DNA from: Reclinomonas americana ATCC 50394
Taxonomy: Eukaryota
NCBI GenBank assembly: GCA_048213135.1
Contig: PS015066.1
Coordinates: 25,160-62,650 of the forward strand
Reading direction: 5' to 3'
DNA length: 37,491 nt
Shown here: piece by piece, positions 1,238-36,400 of the stretch
Position numbering within the stretch: the stretch's first letter is position 1
Layout of the letters: the number at the start of each line of letters is the position of its first letter
Notes under the pieces: generated by a model
Told to the model about the DNA's origin: nothing
Seen by the model: the letters and a program-made list of their open reading frames with translations, nothing else
Databases searched by the model: none
Made by a program: the position numbers and the translations under genes

Positions 1238-4200
1238 ATGGCGGCGACGGGTGACACGGGCAAGGTCGACCTTGGTGGACGATTGCTGGACGCCAATGGG
1301 TTTTCGATATTCGAGACCAAGGCGCGTTGTGCATGACTGGTTAAGTTTTGCTGGCGTTCTTTGTTGCTCATGTGTAGGTGTGCAGTGTGCGATCAGTGGA
1401 TGGGTGATTCAGGATGGAGCGATGGGCGAGGGCACTGCGCGGTATCGGTGTTTGGATGTGGTGCGCTCGGATCGCTCGGTGGAGTGTCACGAAGCGGTGT
1501 CGGTGGTGCTGGAGGCGCTGCAGCGAATGGAGGAGTCGGGTGCGCTGCCGGCCGGCGCCGCCATGTCGTTGCTGTTGCAAGAAGTGGAGGGTGTCGGAGA
1601 GGAGAGCGGCGGGCATCCACTGGCCACGCTGTCGGCCACGCGCCATGCTGTGTTTGCGCTGGAGACCAACCACCCGGTGTTTCTGTACAATGGCGTCATT
1701 GGTGCGTCCGTCCGCACTGTGAGAGAAGGTGTAACGTGCCTGCCTGACGCTGCGGTCTTTGCAGATGCGAAATCCCCGGCCGAGGCACTGAATCGTGCAT
1801 TCGCCGCCTATCCGAACCGCCCGGCTGTCGGCATGCCCGCTCATCGAATCGATGAAACCAACATGCCATTCGGGCGGCAGTGCGACATGGCAGTGGAGGC
1901 GTGAGTAGCCGTGTGCCGATATGTGTAACTCTCTCTCTCTCTCTCTCGCTCTCGCTCGCTCGCTCGCTCTTCCCCATCGTCTCCCCCATCGTCTCTCCCC
2001 TCCCCCTTCTCCTTCCCCCTTCCCCCTTAACCCTTCTTCTCCGCCTTCCCCCCTTCCTTCTCACCCCCTTTGCTCACCGCAGATACCGCTTCATGTCCTA
2101 CCGCCGCATCGGCGAGCTGACGCGCATCTTGGCCAGCGCACTGGATCGCCTGCTGCCGCCGGGCGTCTTTGTCGGTCTCGCCGGCGACAACCGCCTCGAA
2201 TGGATCGTCACCGACTTTGCGTGCTCCGTTGCCTCACGCCATGCCATTGGCCTGCACAAGGTACATGCTTCTTGCCTCTCTCTCCTCCTCACGACACTTT
2301 TTCGCTCATCCACAACATGGCAGACATTTTCGGCCAACGATTTGGACTTTGTTGTGCACAATGCCGAGTTGCATGCGATTGTCAGCGACCTCGAGTTCCT
2401 TCGTGTCGTTGCCACGGCCGCTCCACGCATCGCCGACACGGTGCGTGTCGTGATTCTCATGGACGACGCGGCGCCGGCGGCATTGCTGGCGCCCTTGGCA
2501 CACCAGTTGAGCGAGGCCGGCATTCGATTGGTGCTGCTAAGCGAGCTGGTGGCCGGCGTGGTGGAAGCCGCGTTGCCGGTGCTCGACGAGGAGCCGCGTT
2601 CCATCTTTGCCGTGCTGTACACGAGTGGTTCGACAGGTCAGCCAAAGGGCGTCACCGTGACCTCGGAGGTTTCGTACTCGTCAAGAAAAAATGGCACACA
2701 AGTGTGCGTCGGTGCTGAGCAGCGCGTCGCGCAGATGTTCCTGAAGGACATTTCCAGCTCCGGCTTCATGGACGTGTATCCGGTGGCCGGCTGCTCGTAC
2801 ATTCCATTGTCGCACTCCACCGACCGCATGCGCGTGTGGGAAACAATGATTCAGGGCGGGCGCATCGGCTTCTGCAACTACCATTACACCAACTGGGTTG
2901 ACCACGAGACCGTGAAGAAGGACCAGCTTGTGCATGTGAGTGAGGCGGGGAAGGGAGCATGAGTGACGAGATGTCAGAGAGAGATCTCACGCTCGTTGGT
3001 ACGCCAGGATCACGACACGGGCACCAACAACGTGGAGACACTGCTGGAGGATCTGCGGCTGGTGCGGCCCACCATTTTCATTGGTCCACCGCGCATCTGG
3101 AATGGGATTTATGAGGTGCGACTCTGTGTATGCACTTATCTGCAGGACGACTTGTGCTCACGATCCTGTGCACAGATCTGGGGACGTAGCGTAAGGAGGC
3201 ATGTCGCCAATGGCGCAGCAGTCGAGGAGGCAGAGCATCTGGCCAGCGAGGAATGTCGGCAGATTCTCGGCAATCGCGTGGTGCACTGTGCCACTGGTGA
3301 GTTCACCTCTGTTTCCATCCGTTGGTGTGCGTGAAGTCTCACTTGTGTGGTAGGCGGTGCGCCGACGAGCGAGAAAGTCAAGGTGTGGGTGCGCAAGCTG
3401 CTGCCAGACGTGGCATTCATCGACTCGTATGGCGCCACCGAGTGCGGTGGCATTGCACGCGACGGCGTCGTCATGCCGAGTGTGGAGATGAAGCTCGTGG
3501 ATCATCCCGACATTGTGAGTCGCTGTACACGACTGGATGTGTGAGAGGCAGCTCGTCTCATCTACCTGTGCTCTCAGGGGTTCACCAACGCCGACAAGCC
3601 GTTCCCTCGCGGTGAAATCGCCGTTCGCTCTTTCTTTGTGTCACCTGGTTATCTCAAGTTGCATAATGTCTGCCCGCGTTGTGTGGCCACTTCGTGCTCA
3701 CCACTCGTGCACTGCAGAGATCCAGTGAAGACGGCAGAGGCGTTTCACGATGGGTGGTTCCACACAGGTCAACCTTTTATACAGTGTCTCCTCTGGTGAT
3801 CGATCCTTCTCACGTTCTCCGCAGGCGATCTGGGCATGGTGGACGGCGATGGAAAGCTGCACATTCTCGAGCGCGCCAATGTTTCGTGTGCTGTCAACGA
3901 TGACCACCTGTTAGCTTCTCGCAGTTCTGGTCTTCTTCTCGATTCCTGATGCACCTCTTTACATTCTGTTGTGCGATTCTCTATTAATATTCTGGTCTTC
4001 ATCTCGCTTCTTGGGTCACCTCTCTTTTTCTGGATCCTTTGCATTCTTCCCTGTCAGTTTGTCCTCCCAGCTGCACGCTATTCTCGATTCTGGTCTGCTT
4101 CTCGCTTCCAAACTCACTTTCTGAGCCTGATCTTTCTTCCCTGTCAGTTTGTCCTCCATTTCTTTCTGCAGCTGCAGGCTATTCTAGATTGCTGCTCGCT

Positions 4201-8505: not shown

Positions 8506-11500
8506 TCATCTAGGAGGGTGGAAGCGCGCAATCGTTTCCGGAGCAAAGAAGCGCGCAAAGTCAGGCTCGGCCGACCAGTGCTGCGCGGCCAACTCGTACA
8601 CGCGCAGGAACACGCGCACAAAGCGCGCTGGCGAATAGAAATAATCAAAGATACCAGCAGGTGGTTGAAGAGCCTGCCACACAGAACAACAACAGAGCGT
8701 GAGCTCGAGTCTTTCTCTTCCGTACATGAAAAAACCCAACACATACCTCTTTGGTTTGCGGTGTATATTCGCGATAGTGGTTGCACACGTTGCGCGTCAG
8801 GCGCAACAAGTCAGTGGCGCTGTTCTTGTCGTACTTGCGATACGATCCGCAGTCGACGGCCACAAAGTCGTCGAGTTTGGCGATCCACCCGTCGGGACCT
8901 GCAGCAACACGAGATTAACAGAGCTGTCGCCACTACCGTCGTGCTGCTGCGGTGCATCAACACACTGACCGACAAGCGCCGGTGACTCCCGCGTCAGACT
9001 TTCCCACACAATGGACGGGCTGCCGCGCTCCTTGCCCAGCTGCTCGCTGACCTGGGAGATGAACATCATGCGCCGCTCGCCGTCCCAGAACGCCGGGTGT
9101 GCGCGAACTTCTTGCATCGATGGTCTGTGCCGCGGTGTGTAATGAGCACAACACACACTCTCATCAATGCATGGCGCACTTCCTCCACCGACCTGCTGTT
9201 GGGATCGGCCTGAATCATCGACTGAATGAGCACCTTGTGCAGCGGCAAGTGATCGACACCGCGCAGATCGGCACGCCCACGCAGAATGTTGTGCTCGCGC
9301 GAGTGCCTGCGTCCACTTGTCAATCCACAGCACGACAGCAAGAGCACGATGACGACGACAACAACAACGCAACACGTCGCCAAACGGATGCTTGCCCTTG
9401 GTGAGCACATAGTAAAACACACAGCCGACAGCAAACACATCCATGGCCTTGGTCATGCGACCCTGGTTCAGAATCTGTCGGGTACACACATTCAGAACAC
9501 ACAGTCCGACACATTCAAGTGCATCAAAATGCGCACCTCTGGTGCCTGCCAGCCAAAGGTGCCGTACTGATCCAGTGTTTGGAACGAGATCTGATCACGG
9601 GTGAGGATTTTGCCGGTGCCCATGTCGGAGATCTTGACCCTGTTTGCGCCACACGAGTCAGCACGTGTGGAAGAGACAGTGGCGACACACGCGATTGTCT
9701 GCTTACCTGCCGTCGGTGCCCACCAGAATGTTTGCCGGCTTGATATCTCGATGGACGATATTCAAGCTGTGCAAATGGGCAATACCAGCCGCCACGCCCT
9801 CAATGGCCTGCGCGTCACGAGTGAGCAAGAGGAGTGAGGGAGAATGGGTGTGCAAGACATAGACACCTTCATGGCCGCCTCGGTCGAACTCTCTGGCAGA
9901 ATGTCAGAGAGATTGCCAGTACACCGCTCCAGTACGAGATACACAAATTGGCCATCGGATTCCTGTCACCCAGACAAAGAATGCCGTGTGAATACGTGCG
10001 CACATCATCTCACCCAACACAAAGTCAACAAAACCTTGGCGTAGTAGCGGACGACATTGGGATGATCGTCCGACGACACCTGCATACATCCACCAAGTCA
10101 GTGCACGGGACTGACAAACAAGGTCGCTGGAGAGAGAACTCACGAGAATCTTGATTTCTGTGTCGCTGACATCGAAGAACTCGCACAGCATGCGTTTGAC
10201 GGCCACAGGCCGGCCACCCAACAGACCGGCGTACACCACGGTGCCGTCTTTTCCGCGACCTGTTCAGTTGCACTCAACAGTTAGGCATTCGTCATTGGTG
10301 CTGATAACAAGCGCGCAATCGCACCAAGAATTTCGCGCTGAATCTCCAAACTGCCGACACGAGTGACACCATCCGGGGTGACCTCCTTGTCCGGCTGGAA
10401 CTTTGGTGGCCCTGCACAACATGCACACGTGAGTCAATGAGAGTGAACGAGCATCGCAATAGTCGTCGCAATGTGACGCACTGCCCCGAGAACTCGACTG
10501 CGATGGGCGAGGTTGGTAAGCAATCTGACAAACACACGCACACAGAATGACACGGCAGCTCGATACAAACCGACGACCACGATCCCCACGACGGCGACTC
10601 CTCGTCTGCATCTCCCGCCGCTGCGGTCGGCGCCGCTGCAGTTGCTGGTGGTTGCGGCGGTGGCGGCGGTGGCGGAGGCAACGATTGCACCGGTGGCGGT
10701 GCTTGTTGTGGAGGCGGAGCAGCAGCAGTCAATGGCGGCGTCGAGGTGGCAGATTTCGGCGGTGTTGGTGCGACATGCGCCGGCTCAACCGGCGCGTCTT
10801 CAGGCTCCGGCTCGTCACCACTGTGCGTCTCGTCGTCCGACGGCTCATCCGAGGCGACTGCTGGTCTCTGCGAGCGCCCAGCCTTGCCACCCTTCTTGCC
10901 GGCCTTGCCGCCCTTCTTGCCCGCTGCTGGTGCCTTCTTGCCACCGGCGACTCCACTGCCGGTGTTATTCGACACCTGGCTGGGCTTGGAGCCACCACGG
11001 GAGGCAGTATTCTACCAGCGATGGTCAGCAAGCAGGAAACAGAGAGAGGAAAAGTGGAACTAGACAACACACCTTGCTCGGTCCAACAATGCACCGATGT
11101 ACGGCCACCACAATGCCCACAGGCAGCAGCAACATGCAGCACACGAGTGCAGCAGTGGCGGTCGGGTTCACTCGACTCAGTGCGAGCAACCAGTCAGCTG
11201 TGCCCCACCCGTCAGCATCGCACACACCTCACACCAGACGAACACAGCATGAGGGTTACGCAACCGAGAATGGTGATGAGCGGCGCAGTTGGCGGCACAG
11301 GCTCGTACTTGGGGATCTTGCTGGTGCTACCGAGTGACCTGTGTACACACACAGAGTGTTAGAAAACATCTCCTACCTTCCCTGACAGCAAGCATGCACG
11401 CAACGAATCCGTCGCCCGATCAGAGTCGCCAGTCGCCACCTGCTCCGAGTCTCCATGCGGCAACGCGAGGCGACCAGGCACAGCGATCGGTTCACTTCGT

Positions 11501-15643: not shown

Positions 15644-18958
<3,315 letters not shown>

Positions 18959-19140: not shown

Positions 19141-22100
19141 TTATCGGCGAGGCGACGTGCTCCTCCTCTCGCCGCTGAGACCCGAATCGGAACCGCCTGC
19201 ACTCAGGTGGCGATCGGATCGTGAGTACGGCGAGCGGCTGCCTCCCATCAGTGCCGACGCACTGCAACAACAGGGTGAGGGACGGTGATGCGCTGACACC
19301 ATTTGAGTACTAATGCGCCCCGCTCACCTCGCTGCGGCGCCACTGGATGCCGTGGCAGTGCCGGCGCCGGGTACCTGCTGACCCTTGAGCATCAACATGG
19401 CCTGCGCCTGGCGCAACTGCTGCGACAGCTGATTCTTCTGCTCGCGCAGCTCGCGCAGTTGTCGCTCGTGCGTCTGTGCACGTGCCGCACGATGTGAGCT
19501 CGCGGGTGAGACAAGAAGGGACGACGACAAAATACAACGGGCTGCGCAACATGATAAACTCCATCCTTCTCCTGCTCCAGCGCCTGGAATTGGCGCTTCC
19601 ACGACTCGCGCTCACGCTCTGCCGTGCCCAGTCGCTCGCGCAAATCGTCAATCTCGCGTCGCAGATGCTCCACCGAGCGGCTCTGCTCGTCCACAGCGCG
19701 CAACTCGCGTTGTGACTGCTCGAGCTGCTCGTTGAGGATGTTGATGCGTGCCTCGGCATCGTTGAATCGCTCGCGTGTCTTGTCCGACGCACGAGTGGCT
19801 TCGTTTGCACGGTGCTCGGCAATCATATAGTTCTCCTCCACCATGCGAATCTTGGCCTCGCATTCGTCGCGGTAGTGCGCCAGGTTGTTGTCGGCCTCCG
19901 CCACCTCGTACTCCAGTTGGCGAACGCGGTGCTCCAGGTCGGCACGTGCACGCAGCTCCTCCGAGAGCTTGCCACGCAGCACGCCCAACTCCTCCGTCAT
20001 TGACTCCTGCACGGTCGAGACAGAGGAGGGTCAGGGACAGACGCAGCAGCAGGCGAGCGAGCTCACAGTGACGACAATACTCACCCGATCGCGTGCCATT
20101 GCAGCTCGCTCAGCATTCAGACTGCTGAGCTGCGTGGTGGTCGAGTTGAGCTCCGTCTGCTGTCGCGCCTTGACGGTAGTCAGCTCGTCCTGCAGCCTCT
20201 TGTTCTCATCCTGCAGCTGCTGCCGCTGGGCCTTGGCCGTGTCCAAGAAGTTGCGCGTTTGCACCAGCTCTGCCTTCACCTGCTGTGCAATCGAATCCAA
20301 CGACCGTTCGCGGCCCTCGGCGGCCTGCAACGCACTCTGCAGATGGAGGAGAAAAGGTCTTTAACAAAACCACACAACACGCAGGAGGGAGGAAGCAACA
20401 CAGGTGGTACGCAACTGCCAAGCCACGCATCTTGGCCTGCAGCTGATCGCGTTCCTGAGTCAGCGAATCGGCATGATCGCGAGCGTCGCGCAACTCCTGT
20501 GCCATGAGTTGCACGCGGTGCTGCAGCTCGCTGATCGAGTGAAACGTAAAGGTGAGCAAGCGAATACACCGCGACACTCGACACGTGCGCATGGTGAACT
20601 CACCGACACTCCTCGGTGAGCGAGTCGCGATCCGAGATCACATTCGACGAGTTGCGTCGCTCCTCATCGACTGCCAGCGACAGCTGCTGCATGTCGCGGC
20701 GCAACTGGACCAACTCCTCATCGCGCACCATGGCCTCGCGTTGCCGTGACTCGACAATGGAGCGCAGTTCGCGGATTTCGTCCGTGTACGCCTCACTGTG
20801 ATGCGAAAAGTGAGTCTCCCCGGGTGCGTACAGAAGACACCAAGTGATGAGCACACACACGCTCACCGCTGCATGGCAACATCCTCTTGCAGCACCGCCA
20901 CCTTTTGCACAGCACGCTCGTACTTGTCCTTCCAGTCGCTCTCCGATTCGCGCGTCTCCGCTCGTGCACTGTGCAACTCTTTCTGCAGAGGTGAAGCGCG
21001 CACTTGGTCAGCGCCCAATTCTCCCTTCCGCCAACACATATGGCCGCCAACACATATGGCCGCCACTCACCTCCAGCTGCTGTGCGCGAGTGGACAGACG
21101 ATTGTTCTCCAGCGTGGCATTGTGCAGCTGCAGCTCGAGAGAAGACTCGCGCTCACGAGCACGAATCTCCCACGAACTGACCTCCTGCAACGCCTGATCA
21201 CGCTCGTCCTCCAGTCGTCTTTGCGCCATGCTGTGTGTGATACACGAGTAAGTAACATGAGAGACGGACGTGGATGATGGAGCCACTCAACTGTGCACTC
21301 TGCAAGTCGGCATCCTGCCTCAGTCGCAGCGTACTAATGTTCTCGGTCAGCCGCGCATTCTCGTCCTCGACAGCCGTGACGCGGTCACGCAATCCCATGA
21401 CCTGCGACTGCAACTCGTCGGCGGTGCGTCGCAACAGGTCGTTCTCTTGCTCCATGGCACGCTTCTGCGACATCAATGTGCGCTCAAAATTGGTCCGTTC
21501 CTGCACAACAGAAGGCAACCGGTGAATGAAATGAACAGAAGCCAGGAAACACACACAACAACACGCAACAGTGTCGGCGCCATCGCGCAAGTTGTGCAAC
21601 GCCTCCGAAATGTCGGTGAGTTGCGTCTGCAGCTTCGCATTGTGCTCCTCCAGCGCACCACGGCCGTTGCGCAATTGAATGAGATCGTCGTTCGTCATCT
21701 CATATCTGCGACGGTACTCCTCCGAGCTGCTGCGGTACTTCTCCGCCTCCTCCGCCGTGTTGCGCAAGTCAGTGAGTGCCTGTTGCAGATTGAACACTAG
21801 CTCCTCGTTCTCCGATCGCTGCTGCGCCAGCAGACTGGCGGCGCGCGACTGATCCGCCTGCACTTTGGCTCTGCGCACGAGTCAGCCATCGTGACTCAAG
21901 AAAATGAAAAACTACTGCATCAATCATGCACGCAACAGCTGATTGCGCAGATCCGTGGCCGCATCCTGCAGCTCGCGCATAATCGTGTACGTCTTCTCCT
22001 CGTCTTCTGTGCGCCACTGCAGCACCTGGCGATGGTGGTCGTCGAGAGCCGTAGTCAGCGCTCGTACTCTCTTCTCCATCTCGTCACGTGCGCTTTGCAG

Positions 22101-23146: not shown

Positions 23147-23557
23147 CTCTGTGTGAGAAGGGAGAGAGTCGATCAGCACGCGCGGGCCCATGCATGTCAT
23201 GAGTGGGCCCTCGACAATATGACACCAGCCCGCGGCATCAAAAGGCAGCGGGTGCGACGGGAAGGCGCGACTCACTGACACACACACACAGAGACGCACA
23301 CACACGCGCACGAGCGAGAGAGAGAGAGCGCGTACACACTGCTTTACGATTTGCAACGGTCGGCACTCGTTTCTCTCACGCGAACACACACGCGCGTGCT
23401 GGCACTGACAGAGACACGCGCACACACAATGACGCAGTCACCAACCTGTACGCTACTAAAACGCCCACGCACTCACACGCACAGAGAGAGGGACGAAGAG
23501 AGTGTCCACGCGCGTGCCACGCGATTTTTGCAATTGGAGTTGGACAAACAGAGAGCA

Positions 23558-23908
23558 ATGAGTGGCGAGCTCGAGGCGAACCCACTCGCTGACCTTCTCA
23601 ATGACTTTGATGAGGTGTGCTCCTTCCCCACTGCTCACTCACTCTCTCACCACATCAACTGATCCGCATAAAAGGTGGTCATGGAACGGTGGTATCCAAT
23701 GCTCCGAGAGCACACCTTTCGCAGCGAGTTTGTGCCCGTGTCGCCAGCACAAGCCAGCGCCTTGCTGCAGATGCATCGGAAGCAGAGCACAGACGAATGC
23801 AGTGAAAGCCTGCGTGAGCTGGCAGAGAGCATTACGCGCAGCAAGGGCGATCAGCAGGAGTTCATCTTTGTGAAAATGTCGCATCGCTCGCCGAAGGATG
23901 CTGTGCTG
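23558..23908 (+). CDS. CDC123/R2K-like ATP-grasp protein, N-terminal part
   Basis: MSGELEANPL...|VVMERWYPMLREHTFRSEFVPVS...FIFVKMSHRSPKDAVL; FVKxxxRSPKDA is the CDC123-type motif; cut by a 20-N gap. Confidence 0.85.
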
Positions 23909-23928
23909 NNNNNNNNNNNNNNNNNNNN
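23909..23928. other. Assembly gap (20 N)
   Basis: Run of N. Confidence 1.
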
Positions 23929-23969
23929 GGAGGTGTGCTTCTCGGTCTCGAGTCGCCATGCAAACAAAC

Positions 23970-24725
23970 CTGTGGCCCAGATGGCCTCCGCTTCCGGCTC
24001 CGTCTCGGTGATGCGGAACTGTGCACGCGAGAGCGTCGAAGGTGAGAATCGACAAGGCGACAACACATCGACGGCAGGCGCACGGCGCACCTCAAAGGGA
24101 CCATTCAGGAGCACGTCGCGATCGCGCACCGGGTGAAAGAGAAAGTAGTCGCTGGTGCTGAACGGGTTCAGCTCGACCACCCACACTCGCTGCTGCTCCA
24201 AATCCACATAAAAGTCGAGCACAAACTGGCCCGTCAGCAAGTGCGCCGGCAGCGACGGGCGAATCCTCTCCGCAAAGTACGTCTGCACGAGCTGAGCAAT
24301 CCGATCGCGCAGCTCGGGGAATTCGGCAAAGAAGCAAATGTAGTGGTACTGTGGAGAGCCATAGGGGGTAAGGTGAGACAGTGAGATGGTCTGCGTCTGT
24401 CCTCCACGCATCGCACCTGCGACATGCCAGTGAGCTGTCCCCGCGAGACGAATGCCCGAAACTCAAACGGCGAGTTCAGCGACATATACTCGCGCACCAC
24501 CACCTTCATATCCCACGGCCGCGCATTGTCCGCATGCAGCATGAGCGCCCACTCGAGATCCTCCGCCACGCGCTCACTCTGACTCAACATGCGCACCGCC
24601 TCCTCGCCCGAGCGCACTCCCATGGCCACATGATACGCCTGAATAATCGCCCGCAACCGCTCATTAAACGACGTGCCTCCGCCCGGCAACAGCCGCCGGA
24701 ACTCCGCCATCGTACACTCCGACTC
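23970..24725 (-). CDS. CDC123/R2K-like ATP-grasp, central and C-terminal part, on an apparently inverted contig
   Basis: SERVAEDL...VVVREY...FEFRAFVSRGQLTGMSQ|YHYICFF...FVLDFYVD...VWVVELNPF...DRDVLLNGPFE|FRITE; no clear start of its own and no stop. Confidence 0.88.
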
Positions 24726-25241
24726 NNNNNNNNNNNNNNNNNNNNNNNNNNNNNNNNNNNNNNNNNNNNNNNNNNNNNNNNNNNNNNNNNNNNNNNNNNN
24801 NNNNNNNNNNNNNNNNNNNNNNNNNNNNNNNNNNNNNNNNNNNNNNNNNNNNNNNNNNNNNNNNNNNNNNNNNNNNNNNNNNNNNNNNNNNNNNNNNNNN
24901 NNNNNNNNNNNNNNNNNNNNNNNNNNNNNNNNNNNNNNNNNNNNNNNNNNNNNNNNNNNNNNNNNNNNNNNNNNNNNNNNNNNNNNNNNNNNNNNNNNNN
25001 NNNNNNNNNNNNNNNNNNNNNNNNNNNNNNNNNNNNNNNNNNNNNNNNNNNNNNNNNNNNNNNNNNNNNNNNNNNNNNNNNNNNNNNNNNNNNNNNNNNN
25101 NNNNNNNNNNNNNNNNNNNNNNNNNNNNNNNNNNNNNNNNNNNNNNNNNNNNNNNNNNNNNNNNNNNNNNNNNNNNNNNNNNNNNNNNNNNNNNNNNNNN
25201 NNNNNNNNNNNNNNNNNNNNNNNNNNNNNNNNNNNNNNNNN
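24726..25241. other. Assembly gap
   Basis: Run of N. Confidence 1.
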
Positions 25242-25263
25242 ACCCACTTGCGCACTTTCACAG

Positions 25264-27052
25264 GCAATGTGCACACTGGGTGGAAGCACTTGCTCTTCCC
25301 CGAGAGCGCCGCAGCAGCACCGTCGGCAGCAGTGGCGGCGGAGGCGGACGATGACGGCGCCATGCTCATTCGCCAGGAGTCGCACCGCGAGGCCACACTG
25401 AGCCACGCCGGCATGTCGATGATGGCGGCCGCGCAGGATGACGAGGCCGCGGTGCCGTCGTCGCCCGCGCCCCTCTCGGCACACGACGTGATCAGCAAGA
25501 TGAACAGCTTCCCACAAGTGCCGTGCGTCGCTGAGCGCTTGCCGGTGAGTGCCACGTCGTTTTCCATGCATCAGCCTTCGCTGACGGGTTTGTTGTGCAA
25601 GTTCGCCTTGTGGTACGATCTATCGACGCGAGCCGAATTCGCGTTCAAGTTTGTGGACTCACTCATGCGGCACGGATACTGCATGGTTTGTTCTCATTCC
25701 ATGGGCAGTCAGCCATGCTGCAAACACCGACTGTGCGCTGGGTGCAGGTCCAAGTGTTGGAGGACGATTACTCGCCGATCGCTACAATGTGGGAAGACCT
25801 GCGCAAGTTCATGACCGAGAACAGCGAGGAGGAGAAGCTGGCTCTGTGGCTCAACGACTGGGATTGCGGGTTCGTGCTGGTTGCATCCATGACTGCTTCT
25901 CAAGCTTCTCATCCATCTCCATCAGGTATGCGTTCGCGCCCGACATGTTTGAGCAGTTCCGCTTCGTCTACTCTTCCAGTTGAGCTCGAGATGTTCATTA
26001 CGCATTACAAGCCCAGCGTTCTCCGCCGACACTGAACACCCGCTGCAGATGTTCGTGAGCGCTCGGATTACCCGTGGCCGCAGAAACCAGCCACGTTTCC
26101 GACCTCGGTTGTCAGCTGCGTCTCTCTCTCGATGCTCCTTGCTGCAGGAGGGCACGATCTCATGCGTGCGTGCATGTGTGTTTGCGCAGACTACCATGAA
26201 ACCATGGATGGACTGGCTCGTCAGCTGCTGGAAGCTGTGGCGGTGGGTCTGCATGCCGATCCAGCGCGCTTCCTCGAAGTGTGCGACGAGTCGCCGCTGC
26301 CGATCGGCAAGTACTCCAACGGCGATTTGCGCATGTTCCGTTACCACACGGAGACCGCCGGAGAGAACTACATTGGTGAGGCGCGAGACCAGGTTGGGGA
26401 TGCAAAAGCGCGTGCACTCACTTGCAGTGTCATGCGCAGGCGAGGTGCACTGCGACATTAGCATCCTCACTTGCATTCCCGTGTCGACGGCCGATGGACT
26501 GCAGGTTTTCGGTGCGTCATCATAACCTTTTGTGCGTCGCTCAAAGAGACTAACGCGATCGTGCAGACCGCAGCGGCATGAGCTGGCAGCTGCCCGAGGA
26601 GCACGGGTACGGACCGGCGACACGCGATGTGGTCGTGTTCCCCGGCGAAGTGTTGTGCGGTGAGCAGTGGGTAGGAGTTTGAAGGCAGCAGAAAGAGTCA
26701 TCGCTCTCACAGATGTGGTGCAGGACTGACGGCTGGATGCATACCCGCGTGCCCGCATCGGTTTGCTCTCTTTTTTGTTGCTTCTCGGCCTCGACGCTCT
26801 GGTCCCTCACTCGCTTTGTTGTCTCTCCTATCCAGTGTGAAGCTGAATCCACATGTCGTGGAGCGTTACTCCATGCCATTCCTGCTGCGTCCGCGTGACG
26901 AGGCGCCGATCCGCAGCGTGCTGGAGGGCCGCATTGCGGCCGAGGCCAAGCCGAAGAACATTGTCGAGTCGCCTTCGTACACCGAGTTCTATCGAGCGAG
27001 TTTCAGCACGTGTCTGTGCACCCCGCGGTGGAAGTATCTGCCACCGTATTAA
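25264..27052 (+). CDS. Isopenicillin N synthase-like 2OG-Fe(II) dioxygenase domain (probably the C-terminal half of the ATP-grasp gene)
   Basis: DIOX_N-like FVDSLMRHGYCMV, YPWP, MDGLARQLLEAVAVGL, LRMFRY, iron ligands HCD...H (EVHCDISILT; GLQV; VFPGEVL; IPACPHRV) and the RYS 2OG-binding motif; stop at 27052. Confidence 0.88.
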
Positions 27053-27114
27053 GTAAGGCTCCTGCCAGCCATGTGCTTCTCGTTCTCTTGTTGACCAGAA
27101 TGATGCTCAATTTA

Positions 27115-28461
27115 TCATGTTACCCCGAAAAAGTCGCCGACGGTCACCTCTCGCATACTCTCGTCGCCAATGAAGAGGCACATGAGTCGTGCATCCTCCA
27201 GCTCTCCGCGCGCATCGACACCGAATCTTGGATCTGTGTGTGGCGAGGAGAATGAGGGGAACCACACAGACAAAGATTGACGACAAGTGCGGACAGACCA
27301 TACCCGGTCGACGGCGTGGAAGAAACGAGGGTCTGCGGCACGAAAAGGGAGTGTCGGCAATGGTGAAGAAGATCGCTTCTACTGTTACTGCCACACGAAC
27401 CCTGTACACGTCGACGAGTTTGGTACTGGATGCGGCGTTGCGCAGCACGCGGAGCGTCTCGTACCAACTCCACGTGCCCTGCATGCCCTCGAAATCAGCC
27501 GAGGTGATAACCAGCAGCGGCAGTGTAGCCAACACGCGCCGTGCCTCATCCACCTCGGTTTCGCCTGTGATTGTGCATGCCACCGACGGCAAGCTGTCGC
27601 CCTCCATCAGCGAGCTGCAGGTCGGCGGAAGCTCGTTGCCCGACTCCACATCGAGCGAGTGCTCCGGCACCCTGCAGTCGCACAATGAACGACAGGGGAA
27701 TACGGCAACGCGGGCGGCGAGACGCGACGCACCAGTGCTGGAACAGCCCTCCACTGTAGCAAGCCCCTGTGAACAGCAACGCCTGCGTAATGGCTCCCGC
27801 TCGGAGAAGTGGGACCAGCAGCGCCGCCAGTTCTTGCCAGTGCTGCATGCACCGAGACGCGATGAGCGATCACTGGTGGATATGCTGCATGACGGTCGCA
27901 GCAAACCATGGTGTACGCCGATGTGCTGACTGTGGTGTCAAACGACGACACAGTGTGCGAGTCAACGTGCAGTGCCGCGTCGACTTCTTCATCGTCACCT
28001 CGCGCCTCGTTGAACTCGAGCCACCATCGTCGCCGATCGGGATCCACCGAGTGTGATCGCTGGTAATTGTGGTGAGCGATATGCGAGGGTGANNNNNNNN
28101 NNNNNNNNNNNNNNNNNNNNNNNNNNNNNNNNGGCTGGCCACGCATGCATGCACGCACCAGGAACAAGTCGACTCCACGCTTGCTTCTCTCGGAGAATTC
28201 ACTGTCGTTGTCGGTGCCGCCATGACCCAAGTAGACCAGCAAAAGACGCGACTTGTCGGGCAGTGATCGCACAGTGTGTTTGAGTGATCGCACCGAAGTC
28301 ACCACGATCGCTTCCTGCGAAGATGAGGAGGATCGCTGATTCCACCAGTCGCGCCACTCGTGACACAATCGCTCGATCTCATGGCGATTCTCATCCGGCA
28401 GGCAGTCTGGTCGACCTCCCTGCACGATGATCAGTGACGCGTGATGCACGGGGGAGGTCAT
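27115..28461 (-). CDS. Divergent clan CD cysteine peptidase (legumain C13/caspase-like fold)
   Basis: LLLVYLGHG (His ~28222) and LLFTGACYSGG (Cys ~27760), LLVITSAD, terminal FIGDESMREVTVGDFFG; the 3' exon phases and the start are uncertain. Confidence 0.6.
28093..28132. other. Assembly gap
   Basis: Run of N. Confidence 1.
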
Positions 28462-28590
28462 CACCGCTGAGTGGTGAGCGATCGGCACGCGGGACGAGGA
28501 CAACTCCGTCGCTGTGCGGTCGTCTGCATTGTATGTTTCCTGTTGTACACTTTATGGGAGAGGCACTTCCTCTCGCACGAGTTCTGAGCT

Positions 28591-28951
28591 NNNNNNNNNN
28601 NNNNNNNNNNNNNNNNNNNNNNNNNNNNNNNNNNNNNNNNNNNNNNNNNNNNNNNNNNNNNNNNNNNNNNNNNNNNNNNNNNNNNNNNNNNNNNNNNNNN
28701 NNNNNNNNNNNNNNNNNNNNNNNNNNNNNNNNNNNNNNNNNNNNNNNNNNNNNNNNNNNNNNNNNNNNNNNNNNNNNNNNNNNNNNNNNNNNNNNNNNNN
28801 NNNNNNNNNNNNNNNNNNNNNNNNNNNNNNNNNNNNNNNNNNNNNNNNNNNNNNNNNNNNNNNNNNNNNNNNNNNNNNNNNNNNNNNNNNNNNNNNNNNN
28901 NNNNNNNNNNNNNNNNNNNNNNNNNNNNNNNNNNNNNNNNNNNNNNNNNNN
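28591..28951. other. Assembly gap
   Basis: Run of N. Confidence 1.
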
Positions 28952-33484: not shown

Positions 33485-36400
33485 ATGCCACCAAAGGCCT
33501 CAAAAGGTACGCTTGTCATGCATGTGCATGAGAGAGGCGCGCGAGCCTGCAGCCTGTGGTCGCTTGCAGTTGCATGCAGACTCTCCATTATCCTCCTCTC
33601 TCTGTGTGTGGCGTGCTCCTGTTCTCTCGCCACTGGTGGTTCTGTGATGAATGTGTGTGCGTCGTGGTGATGGCGTGGCGCGTTGGACACGAGCGGCCTT
33701 GCGTGTGCGCGTTGTGCTGTTGCTCGTGCACATTCACATGCACATGGCCACCCGCCACTCACACACTCACTTTTCACACGCGTGCAGAGAAATCGGCGGC
33801 GGCGGTGACGGCCGCGGGCAAGGCCAAGTCATCGATGGTGTGTGAGCCCGTCGCAGATGGCCTCCTTTATGCATGAGCTGATGATGTTCGATTTGTGTGA
33901 CCTGCAGAACGGGTCGACGTCGATGCTGCCGGCGCCTGTCACGCAAAAGGAGAAGCAGCAGCGGCAGCTGGAGAAGCAAAAGGCTGCTACCGCTGAGCAG
34001 AAGAAGAAGAATGCCGACCAGCAGCAGCAGAAGAAGAAGGATGATCGCAAGAAGAGGGAGGATCGGAAGAAGAAGGACGACAAGAGGAAGGAGCACAAGC
34101 AGAAGGATCACAAGAAGGAGGACGACAAGAGCAAGCAGACGAAGAAGAAGGACGACAGAAAGGAGAAGCCTGCTGCGCAGAAACCCGCGGCACCGCGCAA
34201 GCCCGTGGCGCCACCGTCGGAGCAGTCGCTGTTGCCGGTGTCGGTGCTGAAGCAGCGAGCGATCCAGATGTATCAGGAGCGCATTCGGCGACATGAGGAG
34301 CAGCATGGTGCGTGTTTCCATGTGTATGTGCATCGGCAGCACGTGCGGCAACTGACCTGTTGTTTGCATCACAGAGGCCACGGCCAGTGCTGGCAAGGAA
34401 TCGAGCGACGATCGGTGGTTGCGAATGGTGCTCAAGTCGGGCACGCTGTCGGATCGTGTGGCCGCCCTGTCGCTCCGCGCACAGCAGGATCCGATTCACT
34501 CGTTGCGACTGATCAAGTCGCTCGTCGCCATGTGTGGCAAGCAGGCTGCGCGTCGTGAGGCGCTGCTGGCTGCTGAGGCACTGAAGGACGCCTTCACCAA
34601 CAGTGACGCGCTGCTGCCGTCCGATCGCCGTCTGCGTTACTTTCACGAGTCTCTGGCCGCGTACCGTGTGACCACACCCGACGGCGACGTCCCCGACCGA
34701 TTGCTCATCGACTGGTGAGTGAGAGAGTGTGTGAGTGGAGAACGCCAACAGCAGGGAGCTGAACGTGGAGTGGGGACGCAGGGCATTTGAGGATTTGCTA
34801 AAGGAGACGCATGGCGAGTTTATGCGCACTCTGGAGGTGATGACGCACGACGCGTTGGAACACACCAAGACCGTGGCGCTGCGCTACTGCTTCGACATGC
34901 TGGTGGCGAAGCCAGAGGTACTTGCGCACACTTGCATCACCTTTGCACCCTCCACTCTTCTCTCACCCATTCACCCAACTCAGGGCGAACGCGTGCTGTT
35001 GAGCATGTTGGCCAACAAGCTCGGCGACCCCGATCGCAAGGTCGCCTCGCGCTGCTCGCACCTCCTCATGCAGCTCATCACCGAGCACCATCCGTCGATG
35101 AAGGCCGTGGTGGTGACCGAGGTGGAACGTCTCATGTTCCGCCCCAATGTGGACCTGCATGCGCTGCACTACTCCGCGGCATTCCTCAACCAGATCATTC
35201 TGACGCGTCGCGACAAGGCTCTCGCCACTTCGCTGCTGGAGATCTACTTTGGTATCTTCAAACTGCTCATCTCCAAGGGCGAGATGGAGTCGCGCACATT
35301 GTCGCTGCTGTTGACTGGTGTCAATCGAGCGTACCCGTTCGCGGCCGGTGCGTCGCTGGATGGCAAGAAGGATCGGAAGCAGGGAGGGCGGCAGCGTCGC
35401 GACGAGGACGAGGCTGCGGAGGCCGCGGAGGCCGCAGCCGCAGACGAGCAGGCCGAGGGTCTCACGATCACCGACAAGTTCCGCTCGCACCTCGACACGC
35501 TGTTCAAGGTGGCCAACGGGTCGCACTTCAACGTGGCCACGCAGGCCCTCCTCCTGCTCCTGCAAGTGTCGTCGGCAGACAGTGGTGAACTGCGCGATCG
35601 GTTCTACAAGACGCTGTACGGTCGTCTGCTGTCACCGGAGTTGCACGTGACCTCGAAGAAGGTGCGGTGTGCAGGAGGGAGTGTCAGTTTGTTGCAGATT
35701 GAGTGACCCTCTTTCTTTCTTCTTTTATTGCATAGGCGCAATTCCTGAACGTGCTGTTCCGTGCCATGCGCGACGACCCGATGGTGGACCGAGTGCGCGC
35801 CTTCACGAAGCGCGTGCTGCAAGTTGGCATGCACCAGATGCCGAGCTTTGTGTGCGGTGCCATTTTCCTGCTCTCCGAGGTCGTGCAGCGTCGATCGGTG
35901 CTCAAGTCCAGCATTCTGCACGCCGAGCACCTCGCGCCGTCCACAAGTGCCACCTCCACGTCCACTGCACCGCCCTTGGCGCGAGGCAAGTCTGCTTCTG
36001 CTGCCGATGCCGATGCCGACAGCGATGAGGATGAGTACTTTGGTGACGCGCGGAAGGTGGTGGAGGTGTGTGTGTGTGTGTGAAAGAGGGAGAGAGAGAC
36101 TGCGCGGTGAGTCCTCACTTTTGATGACACGCAGGACGGTGATGATGACGATGACGAGGAAGCAGACGAGGGAGAGGAGGCAGAGGAAGAGGAGGAGGAG
36201 GAGGACTTTGAGTTTTCCGGTGATTTCACGATGGACGGTGAGAAGGACGATGATGATGATGATGACGACGAGGACGATGAGGATGGCGAAGAGGCTGCCG
36301 ACAAGGAGGAGGGAGAGGAGCTAGCCGACGATGGAGTCTTGTGAGTGAGCCGATGCATGCAAGGCCAATCTTCAAAAGACTCACATCTGCCTTGCAGCAA

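Follow-up and report, generated by a model that had tools for sequence, protein, structure and literature searches.

The ATP-grasp enzymes of the CDC123 clade are predicted ligases, for which substrates are known only in eIF2 assembly. Peptide-antibiotic clusters pair a separate ATP-grasp ligase with an Fe(II)/2-oxoglutarate (2OG) oxygenase, e.g., DdaF/DdaC of dapdiamide. In our study, a 37,491-nucleotide (nt) stretch of Reclinomonas americana ATCC 50394 (contig PS015066.1 of assembly GCA_048213135.1, positions 25,160–62,650 of the forward strand; hereafter the window, numbered from its first nucleotide) was found to contain a CDC123/D123-like ATP-grasp gene followed by a gene for a 2OG-Fe(II) oxygenase, with a run of 516 N between them. 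The first-pass annotation of the window had read both as one fused polypeptide and had proposed ligation followed by oxidation, which is the pairing of chemistries in the DdaF/DdaC-type systems. However, those pairs are bacterial, consist of separate proteins and use another ATP-grasp clade, and nothing in the window shows a shared substrate. We consider it fairly probable that the ATP-grasp and the oxygenase are separate neighbouring genes; a fusion of any kind is the less likely reading and is rather doubtful. In reaching this preference, we weighed the evidence for and against and gave a lineage-specific fusion a low prior; the fusion itself was not established, because it rests wholly on sequence inside the 516-N gap.

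The inverted contig and the D123-like ATP-grasp gene

The window is a draft eukaryotic scaffold with a G+C content of ~58%, numerous short introns and six runs of N. The minus strand of 23929–24725 was found to extend the plus-strand gene that begins at the ATG at 23558. Three pieces matched Pfam D123 (PF07065) in the order of the profile, i.e., 23675–23908 of the plus strand to positions 62–102 (20.3 bits, under the 24-bit cut-off), followed by 24411–24725 and 23929–24351 of the minus strand to positions 111–183 (32.8 bits) and 188–250 (32.2 bits), respectively; the 797-nt contig is therefore mis-oriented. When the rebuilt protein was aligned to the profile of 30 protist relatives (245–255 bits), the junction between the first contig and the flipped one was ungapped, so the 20-N gap between them conceals essentially nothing. 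The contig is inverted in the scaffold, and the flip made in the first-pass annotation, which had continued RSPKDAVL into ESECTMAEF, was borne out by the profile order and by the ungapped junction.

After the flip, the ATP-grasp gene runs from 23558 to at least 23970 and encodes at least 302 residues in five or more exons. The earlier reading had carried the ATP-grasp through to EAIWAT; its identity as an ATP-grasp stood, whereas the VRRAPAVDVLSPCRFSPSTLSRAQ that had been read as protein (24019–24090) was found to be a 72-nt intron, which reads as protein because it is in frame and open. It is a GT-AG intron with a CTCAC branch-like site, its in-frame codon score was −9.0 bits over 24 codons, and its donor and acceptor scored 7.0 and 5.77 bits (leave-one-out), respectively. 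A tail-only profile aligned NGPFE straight to FRITETEPE and skipped 24 residues; excision of the intron restored the family-invariant NGPFEFR and raised the profile score from 245.2 to 254.6–255.1 bits. The next exon, encoding FRITETEPEAEAIWAT, had a codon score of +10.1 bits over 16 codons. A stop-free, in-frame intron such as this one is easily missed by gene callers and in by-eye reading. After its removal, only 14 residues were left between the invariant R of NGPFEFR and the candidate donor at 23970, whereas 21–73 residues (median 29.5) follow this R in all 30 relatives; the coding sequence (CDS) must therefore run beyond 23970.

The rebuilt protein matched the profile of protist relatives over positions 34–330 with 255 bits (E = 5e-80). 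When the last ATP-grasp exon was searched exhaustively with phmmer, 95 matches were obtained, the best of them with 56.7 bits and none with an identity above 50%; 94 of the 95 have at most 482 amino acids (aa) and are too short for both domains. The Pfam scan covered 42 of these matches, namely all those longer than 272 aa and P0005 (267 aa), the remaining 53 being of at most 272 aa; D123 alone was carried by 41 of the 42 and a 2OG family by none. The top match, of 3334 aa, was rejected as spurious, since Pfam showed it to be a DUF5649 repeat protein. The named protist relatives were KAJ3434439.1 of Anaeramoeba flamelloides ('cell division cycle protein 123') and the transcript EP00698_P003716 of Gefionella okellyi. 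Each of the 30 relatives in the alignment stands alone, with a length of 326–416 aa.

PMC4431377 (Burroughs et al. 2015) describes the R2K active-site set as an absolutely conserved Lys in strand 2 of the RAGNYA fold and a second Lys/Arg in the next loop, together with an ExR in the first kinase-like strand, an Asp in strand 4 and, at the end, an ExN motif. In the alignment with the 30 relatives, the window protein kept 33 of 37 near-invariant columns, including FVK, RSPKDA, EFR, DF, and ELN. The '2K' pair was kept in FIFVK and RSPKDA, where K210, R214, K217, and D218 are the family consensus, the strands being mapped by alignment only. The ExR, Asp and ExN were retained as EFR (columns 374–376), DF (439–440), and ELN (459–461), respectively. 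These residues are common to the window protein and to CDC123/D123 (PF07065; R2K.1 clade; structures 8PHD, 4ZGN, 4ZGO, and 4ZGP). A profile of the window pieces and the 30 relatives matched the solved CDC123 chains of human (8PHD, E = 1.6e-33) and fission yeast (4ZGN, E = 1e-24) over the ATP-grasp core only, and the group is for this reason placed as a divergent subfamily of the CDC123 family. The likeness to canonical CDC123 is confined to the core (profile positions 108–276), whereas the window protein has its own NGPFEFR and a short Trp-helix tail.

Judged by its sequence, the product of the first gene is a divergent CDC123/D123-family ATP-grasp with the R2K active-site set; Pfam D123, the family profile and the conserved R2K residues all agree with the assignment made in the first-pass annotation. 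Because this set is kept, the protein is predicted to bind ATP and, like CDC123, to work on a partner protein or peptide as an ATP-dependent ligase or assembly factor. Sequence alone gives no grounds to infer an eIF2-related role. The protist D123-like subfamily has 35–50% identity to the window protein over the last ATP-grasp exon, and the window protein differs from it by the absence of ~33 N-terminal profile residues. It is possible that this subfamily corresponds to the 'second, rapidly evolving' set of eukaryotic CDC123 proteins described in PMC4431377.

Three of the 30 relatives (P0030, P0047, and P0073) were found to contain a hydrophobic, membrane-anchor-like C-terminal stretch with an 18-residue Kyte-Doolittle mean of 1.2–2.5. 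In many protist relatives (P0007, P0009, P0011, P0016, P0017, P0020, P0024, and P0032), the N-terminus contained a motif of the L..A...KLKK(T/V)....D.SAP type (columns 1–40 of the alignment), which we take to resemble the actin-binding WH2 motif; no WH2 family was found in these relatives by Pfam at E <= 0.001. This WH2-like part is absent from the window protein.

The divergent 2OG-Fe(II) oxygenase gene

As predicted from its spliced exons, the contig from 25242 onward encodes a complete but very divergent 2OG-Fe(II) oxygenase of the PF03171 type. The gene model has 10 exons over 25264–27052 and nine introns of 55–75 nt, one of which is a GC-AG intron (26115–26189). This 75-nt intron is the sole frame-consistent splice between exons 5 and 6, and the spliced TSVVNYHETMDG was backed by the profile alignment; the segment is itself open in frame, and intron retention or an assembly indel may be involved.

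The test profile for the oxygenase was made from 23 bacterial open reading frames (ORFs), each matched by Pfam PF03171 at 58–97 bits. They came from bacterial genomes reached via their ABC-F locus (24 loci; L030, of 596 aa, was excluded for its length), and no PF03171-bearing ORF was found in six large plasmid records. The spliced oxygenase scored 80.1 bits against this profile, and the best of 200 shuffles scored 3.5 bits. The HCD, HRV, and RYS motifs were aligned, in the order of the family, to the catalytic columns aaHeD, HRV, and RyS, respectively; the HxD...H would bind the iron and the RxS the carboxylate of 2OG. The alignment covered positions 120–295 of 315 only, and the N-terminal (DIOX_N-like) half was undetected. 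Pfam searches with single oxygenase exons and in-frame ORFs gave no family except for a chance-level Rv2179c-like match, and PDB searches with single exons gave no matches.

The first-pass annotation had described an intact oxygenase with HxD...H and RxS motifs after an Ala/Asp-rich stretch, and the profile score and the aligned motifs bear this description out. It had also called the enzyme isopenicillin N synthase-like, which is acceptable only as a loose label for membership in PF03171; the PDB exon searches gave no specific link to isopenicillin N synthase. Isopenicillin N synthase, ACC oxidase, and flavonol synthase all belong to PF03171. The oxygenase domain is preceded by ~90 visible residues of Ala/Asp-rich low complexity, and the window oxygenase differs from the PF03171 family in this N-terminal extension of 60 to >90 residues.

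Separate genes or one polypeptide across the 516-N gap

Two intact genes lie head to tail on the plus strand of a compact, intron-rich, protist-like genome, and they are probably separate. The last few codons and the stop of the first gene would lie inside the 516-N gap. The second gene (25264–27052) would begin with a disordered N-terminal extension of 60 to >90 residues before the oxygenase, and its start would be either in a short first exon within the gap, spliced at 25263, or at Met 25362. We infer two transcription units, as well as the activities and the substrates of both products. Read through past the candidate donor, the ATP-grasp frame reaches 28 residues after the invariant R at the end of the contig; given the median of 29.5 in the relatives, termination shortly after the gap begins would be usual for the family. 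Elsewhere in the window, ~410 nt lie between the divergent starts at 23147 and 23558 and 55 nt between the convergent stops at 27052 and 27107, so one gene could end and the next begin, with intergenic sequence in between, within ~500 nt. The 12 local introns all measure 55–75 nt, whereas an intron bridging the gap as scaffolded would be of 579 nt (41 + 516 + 22); the distances set by the scaffolder are not obviously arbitrary, because the neighbouring 20-N gap corresponds to a gap of near zero.

The codon scores on the two sides of the gap were also examined. The read-through after 23970, GLFAWRLETEKHTS, scored +0.9 bits in frame over 14 codons, a value that is reached by one of the 12 true introns read alike (−12.1 to +1.8 bits); coding windows scored 6.0 ± 5.1 bits. 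The last 22 nt before 25264 scored −3.3 bits over 7 codons. From the in-frame Met 25362 onward, the coding signal is strong (25362–25544, +27.8 bits over 61 codons), which weighs for separate genes.

Both domains were found in one protein in none of the 95 library matches to the ATP-grasp exon. A profile search for forms of 729–2080 aa gave none, which is weak evidence, as forms of 483–728 aa lay outside that search, and word-indexed protein searches for long forms only, in which the queries were the last exon of the ATP-grasp and exons 5–6 of the oxygenase, gave none either. Two metagenome scans for a close relative or an ungapped copy of the locus, as well as a plasmid tblastn search with an oxygenase piece, were negative, and an Atlas search with the last oxygenase exon gave no usable match. 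The 30 Atlas look-alike clusters shown for the ATP-grasp contained D123/R2K families only. The domain-architecture check suggested in the first-pass annotation thus yielded no fused relative in the library matches, at 729–2080 aa or in the Atlas clusters. A literature search found no work combining CDC123, 2-oxoglutarate and ATP-grasp, and the main text of PMC4431377 does not mention dioxygenase, 2OG or oxoglutarate. The remark that the architecture is not recognised as characterised agrees with this, as no report of a fusion of D123 with a 2OG oxygenase was found. The claim of one polypeptide was not demonstrated; its junction lies in the 516 N, and the comparative evidence (stand-alone relatives, no fused form, an intron of ~579 nt if the gap estimate holds) speaks against it.

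The best surviving alternative is a fusion by direct splicing of 23970 to 25264, which would give one protein of 705 aa with the D123-like ATP-grasp, a C-terminal Trp helix (GWKHLL), an Ala/Asp-rich linker of ~80 residues and the 2OG-Fe(II) oxygenase, in this order. We consider it quite unlikely, but several observations weigh for it and against separate genes. The donor matrix was built from 11 local donors, and true sites were scored leave-one-out. The GT at 23969 scored 8.91 bits, above all 11 true donors (−6.5 to 8.22 bits), and this score was equalled or passed by 27 of the 4591 GTs of the window, but by none of the 188 GTs that lie in exons. The AG at 25263 scored 5.64 bits, above 10 of the 12 true acceptors (−2.0 to 5.9 bits), a score that is also reached by 14 of 169 exon AGs. 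Both sites (donor CAG/GTTTGT) are in phase 1, as the first-pass annotation had noted, and the visible parts of the intron, 41 and 22 nt, add up to 63 nt, which lies within the local range of 55–75 nt if the contigs abut. The spliced join gives an ORF that is open for 705 codons. The accompanying statement that no stop intervenes is correct but says very little, as the visible sequence comprises 14 codons past the donor and 7 ahead of the acceptor.

The sequence after the acceptor also favours this fusion. The 32 open codons of 25266–25361 scored an ambiguous +1.4 bits, compared with 13.2 ± 10.3 bits for coding and −17.6 ± 7.2 bits for non-coding sequence; a plain 5' untranslated region (UTR) is disfavoured here, because the stretch is open and closer to coding. 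On a matrix built from the C-terminal Trp helix of the relatives, GNVHTGWKHLLFP, which directly follows the acceptor, scored 5.0 bits, a value reached at 21 of 54,457 background positions, whereas the read-through ATGLFAWRLETEK scored −8.5 bits; true members scored −6 to 23 bits (leave-one-out), with 17 of 22 at 5 bits or more. The need for the CDS to extend past the donor (14 versus 21–73 residues) is accounted for by such a splice, and the inverted contig marks the local scaffolding as unreliable. The negative searches for fused forms are all weak, and no close relative of the organism is among the collections searched.

On the other side, the 516-N gap does not fit the tight intron range of 55–75 nt, and direct splicing needs either a wrong gap estimate (a true gap of ~0–12 nt and an intron of 63–75 nt) or an exceptional intron of ~579 nt. 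The 516 N may have arisen from the mis-scaffolding itself, in which case the contigs would abut and an intron of ~63–75 nt would yield a 705-aa protein, the ATP-grasp with its C-terminal Trp helix being tethered to the oxygenase by a disordered linker; this is in our estimate unlikely. The full family profile has no preference, with near-equal scores for the read-through (255.1 bits), spliced (254.9 bits), and truncated (254.6 bits) forms. The Trp stands at tail position 20 in the spliced form and at 18 (Trp-Arg) in the read-through, compared with 15–18 in 21 of 22 relatives. The Trp-helix motif thus does not decide, as the spliced form is preferred by the simple matrix but not by the full profile. 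In addition, the read-through is more coding-like than 11 of the 12 introns, no fused relatives were found in the library, long-form or Atlas searches, and the prior for a lineage-specific fusion of two neighbours is low. An alternative donor at 24053 joined to 25264 placed the Trp at the family position 16 with a gain of 2 bits, and it was dropped in favour of the 72-nt intron 24019–24090 with its gain of 10 bits.

A fusion in which the ~516-nt gap conceals at least one more coding exon, flanked by normal short introns, is highly improbable. It is compatible with the size of the gap, the real-looking donor and acceptor and the range of intron sizes. However, it has the same low prior as any fusion, the matching phases would be a one-in-three coincidence, and no fused relatives were found in the library and long-form searches. 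Extra exons would also push WKHLL far from its family position, so that the Trp-helix match would be due to chance.

Still less probable is a real inversion, i.e., a freshly broken D123-like pseudogene, or an origin of the 797-nt contig from a paralogous locus. The deposited scaffold does hold this contig inverted, but the rebuilt junction is seamless, in frame and ungapped in the profile alignment. All D123-like exons are intact, with 33 of 37 near-invariant residues kept and a strong coding signal, and the N runs at both ends of the contig are scaffold joins and not sequenced breakpoints. The least probable of all is that the AG at 25263 serves as a trans-splice (spliced-leader) or alternative acceptor for co-transcribed, separately translated ORFs, the only support for which is a good acceptor without a visible upstream exon, as no evidence of spliced leaders was found in the organism and the 32 open, coding-like codons before the first Met are left unexplained.

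Feature coordinates, neighbourhood and meaning of the locus

Table 1. Features of the D123-like/oxygenase locus and its neighbourhood, in window coordinates; a slash marks a splice site or a contig junction.
Feature	Coordinates	Strand	Remarks
D123-like exon 1	23558–23614	+	ATG at 23558, 19 codons; join to exon 2 ungapped in the family-profile alignment
D123-like intron 1	23615–23674	+	60 nt, phase 0; GAG/GTGTGC...AAAAG/GT; leave-one-out donor 7.8 bits
D123-like exon 2	23675–23908	+	stops at contig end in ...FVKMSHRSPKDAVL, with both R2K lysines; K210, R214, S215, K217, D218 kept
N run	23909–23928		20 N; scaffold gap, ~0 coding residues concealed; ungapped profile alignment across KDAVL/ESECTMAEF
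Separate contig	23929–24725	−	797 nt, mis-oriented; D123-like exons 3–5
D123-like exon 3	24417–24725	−	ESEC...EFRAFVSRGQLTGMSQ; ExR motif; Pfam D123 profile 111–183
D123-like intron 2	24349–24416	−	68 nt, phase 0; CAG/GTGCGATG...CTCCACAG/TA
D123-like exon 4	24091–24348	−	YHYICFF...DFYVD...VVELNPF...NGPFE; Asp and ExN motifs; Pfam D123 profile 188–250
D123-like intron 3	24019–24090	−	72 nt, in frame; GAG/GTGCGCCG...CTCACC...GTGCACAG/TT
D123-like exon 5 to candidate donor	23970–24018	−	FRITETEPEAEAIWAT and G of a split codon; aligned to profile
Intron start or coding read-through	23929–23969	−	donor CAG/GTTTGTTT, or (G)LFAWRLETEKHTS running into the gap
N run	24726–25241		516 N; ATP-grasp/oxygenase junction concealed
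Candidate acceptor	25242–25263	+	22 nt, non-coding-like; ends TTTCACAG/ before GC at 25264
First visible oxygenase exon	25264–25544	+	NVHTGWKHLLFPE, Ala/Asp-rich low complexity; in-frame Met 25362, 25413, 25500; no Pfam family
Oxygenase exons 2–10	25602–25685, 25748–25869, 25926–25978, 26049–26114, 26190–26375, 26440–26511, 26567–26659, 26724–26760, 26836–27052	+	stop TAA
Catalytic motifs	26448–26456 (HCD)	+	distal His in the 37-nt exon 26724–26760; RYS in the last exon
AMP-binding enzyme	1856–2959	+	family match of ORF
Protein kinase	8800–9594	−	family match of ORF
ABC-F ATPase (ABC_tran and ABC_tran_Xtn)	17140–18466	+	family match of ORF
Nuf2	19395–20030	−	family match of ORF
CBF/Mak21	34735–36080	+	family match of ORF

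The neighbouring ORFs listed in Table 1 belong to ordinary eukaryotic families, and no link of these ORFs to the ATP-grasp/oxygenase pair was found. On the opposite strand, the longest open frame, at 27107–27937, has no family match, and its stop is the one that lies 55 nt from the oxygenase stop; if this frame is a gene, the genome would be very compact. The stretch of 23161–23557, which separates the D123-like ATG from the first ATG in the opposite-strand frame (~23147), was found to be rich in CACA/GAGA/CGCG low-complexity sequence. A second small contig (28133–28590) lies between N runs of 40 and 361 (28093–28951), and its codon scores were too flat to orient it.

If the fusion were true, one substrate would undergo both ATP-dependent ligation and oxidation. 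A ligate-then-oxidise pathway would then be indicated, with a partner that can be tested, and the 705-aa protein would be the first direct clue to the chemistry coupled to a CDC123-like ligase. In practical terms, our study found a mis-oriented contig that splits a gene, and it provides two gene models: a corrected one with at least five exons, which encodes a divergent D123-like protein of the protist type, and one with 10 exons, which encodes a very divergent oxygenase that is invisible to exon-by-exon domain scans. Each of the two proteins is a new and divergent representative of a known family.

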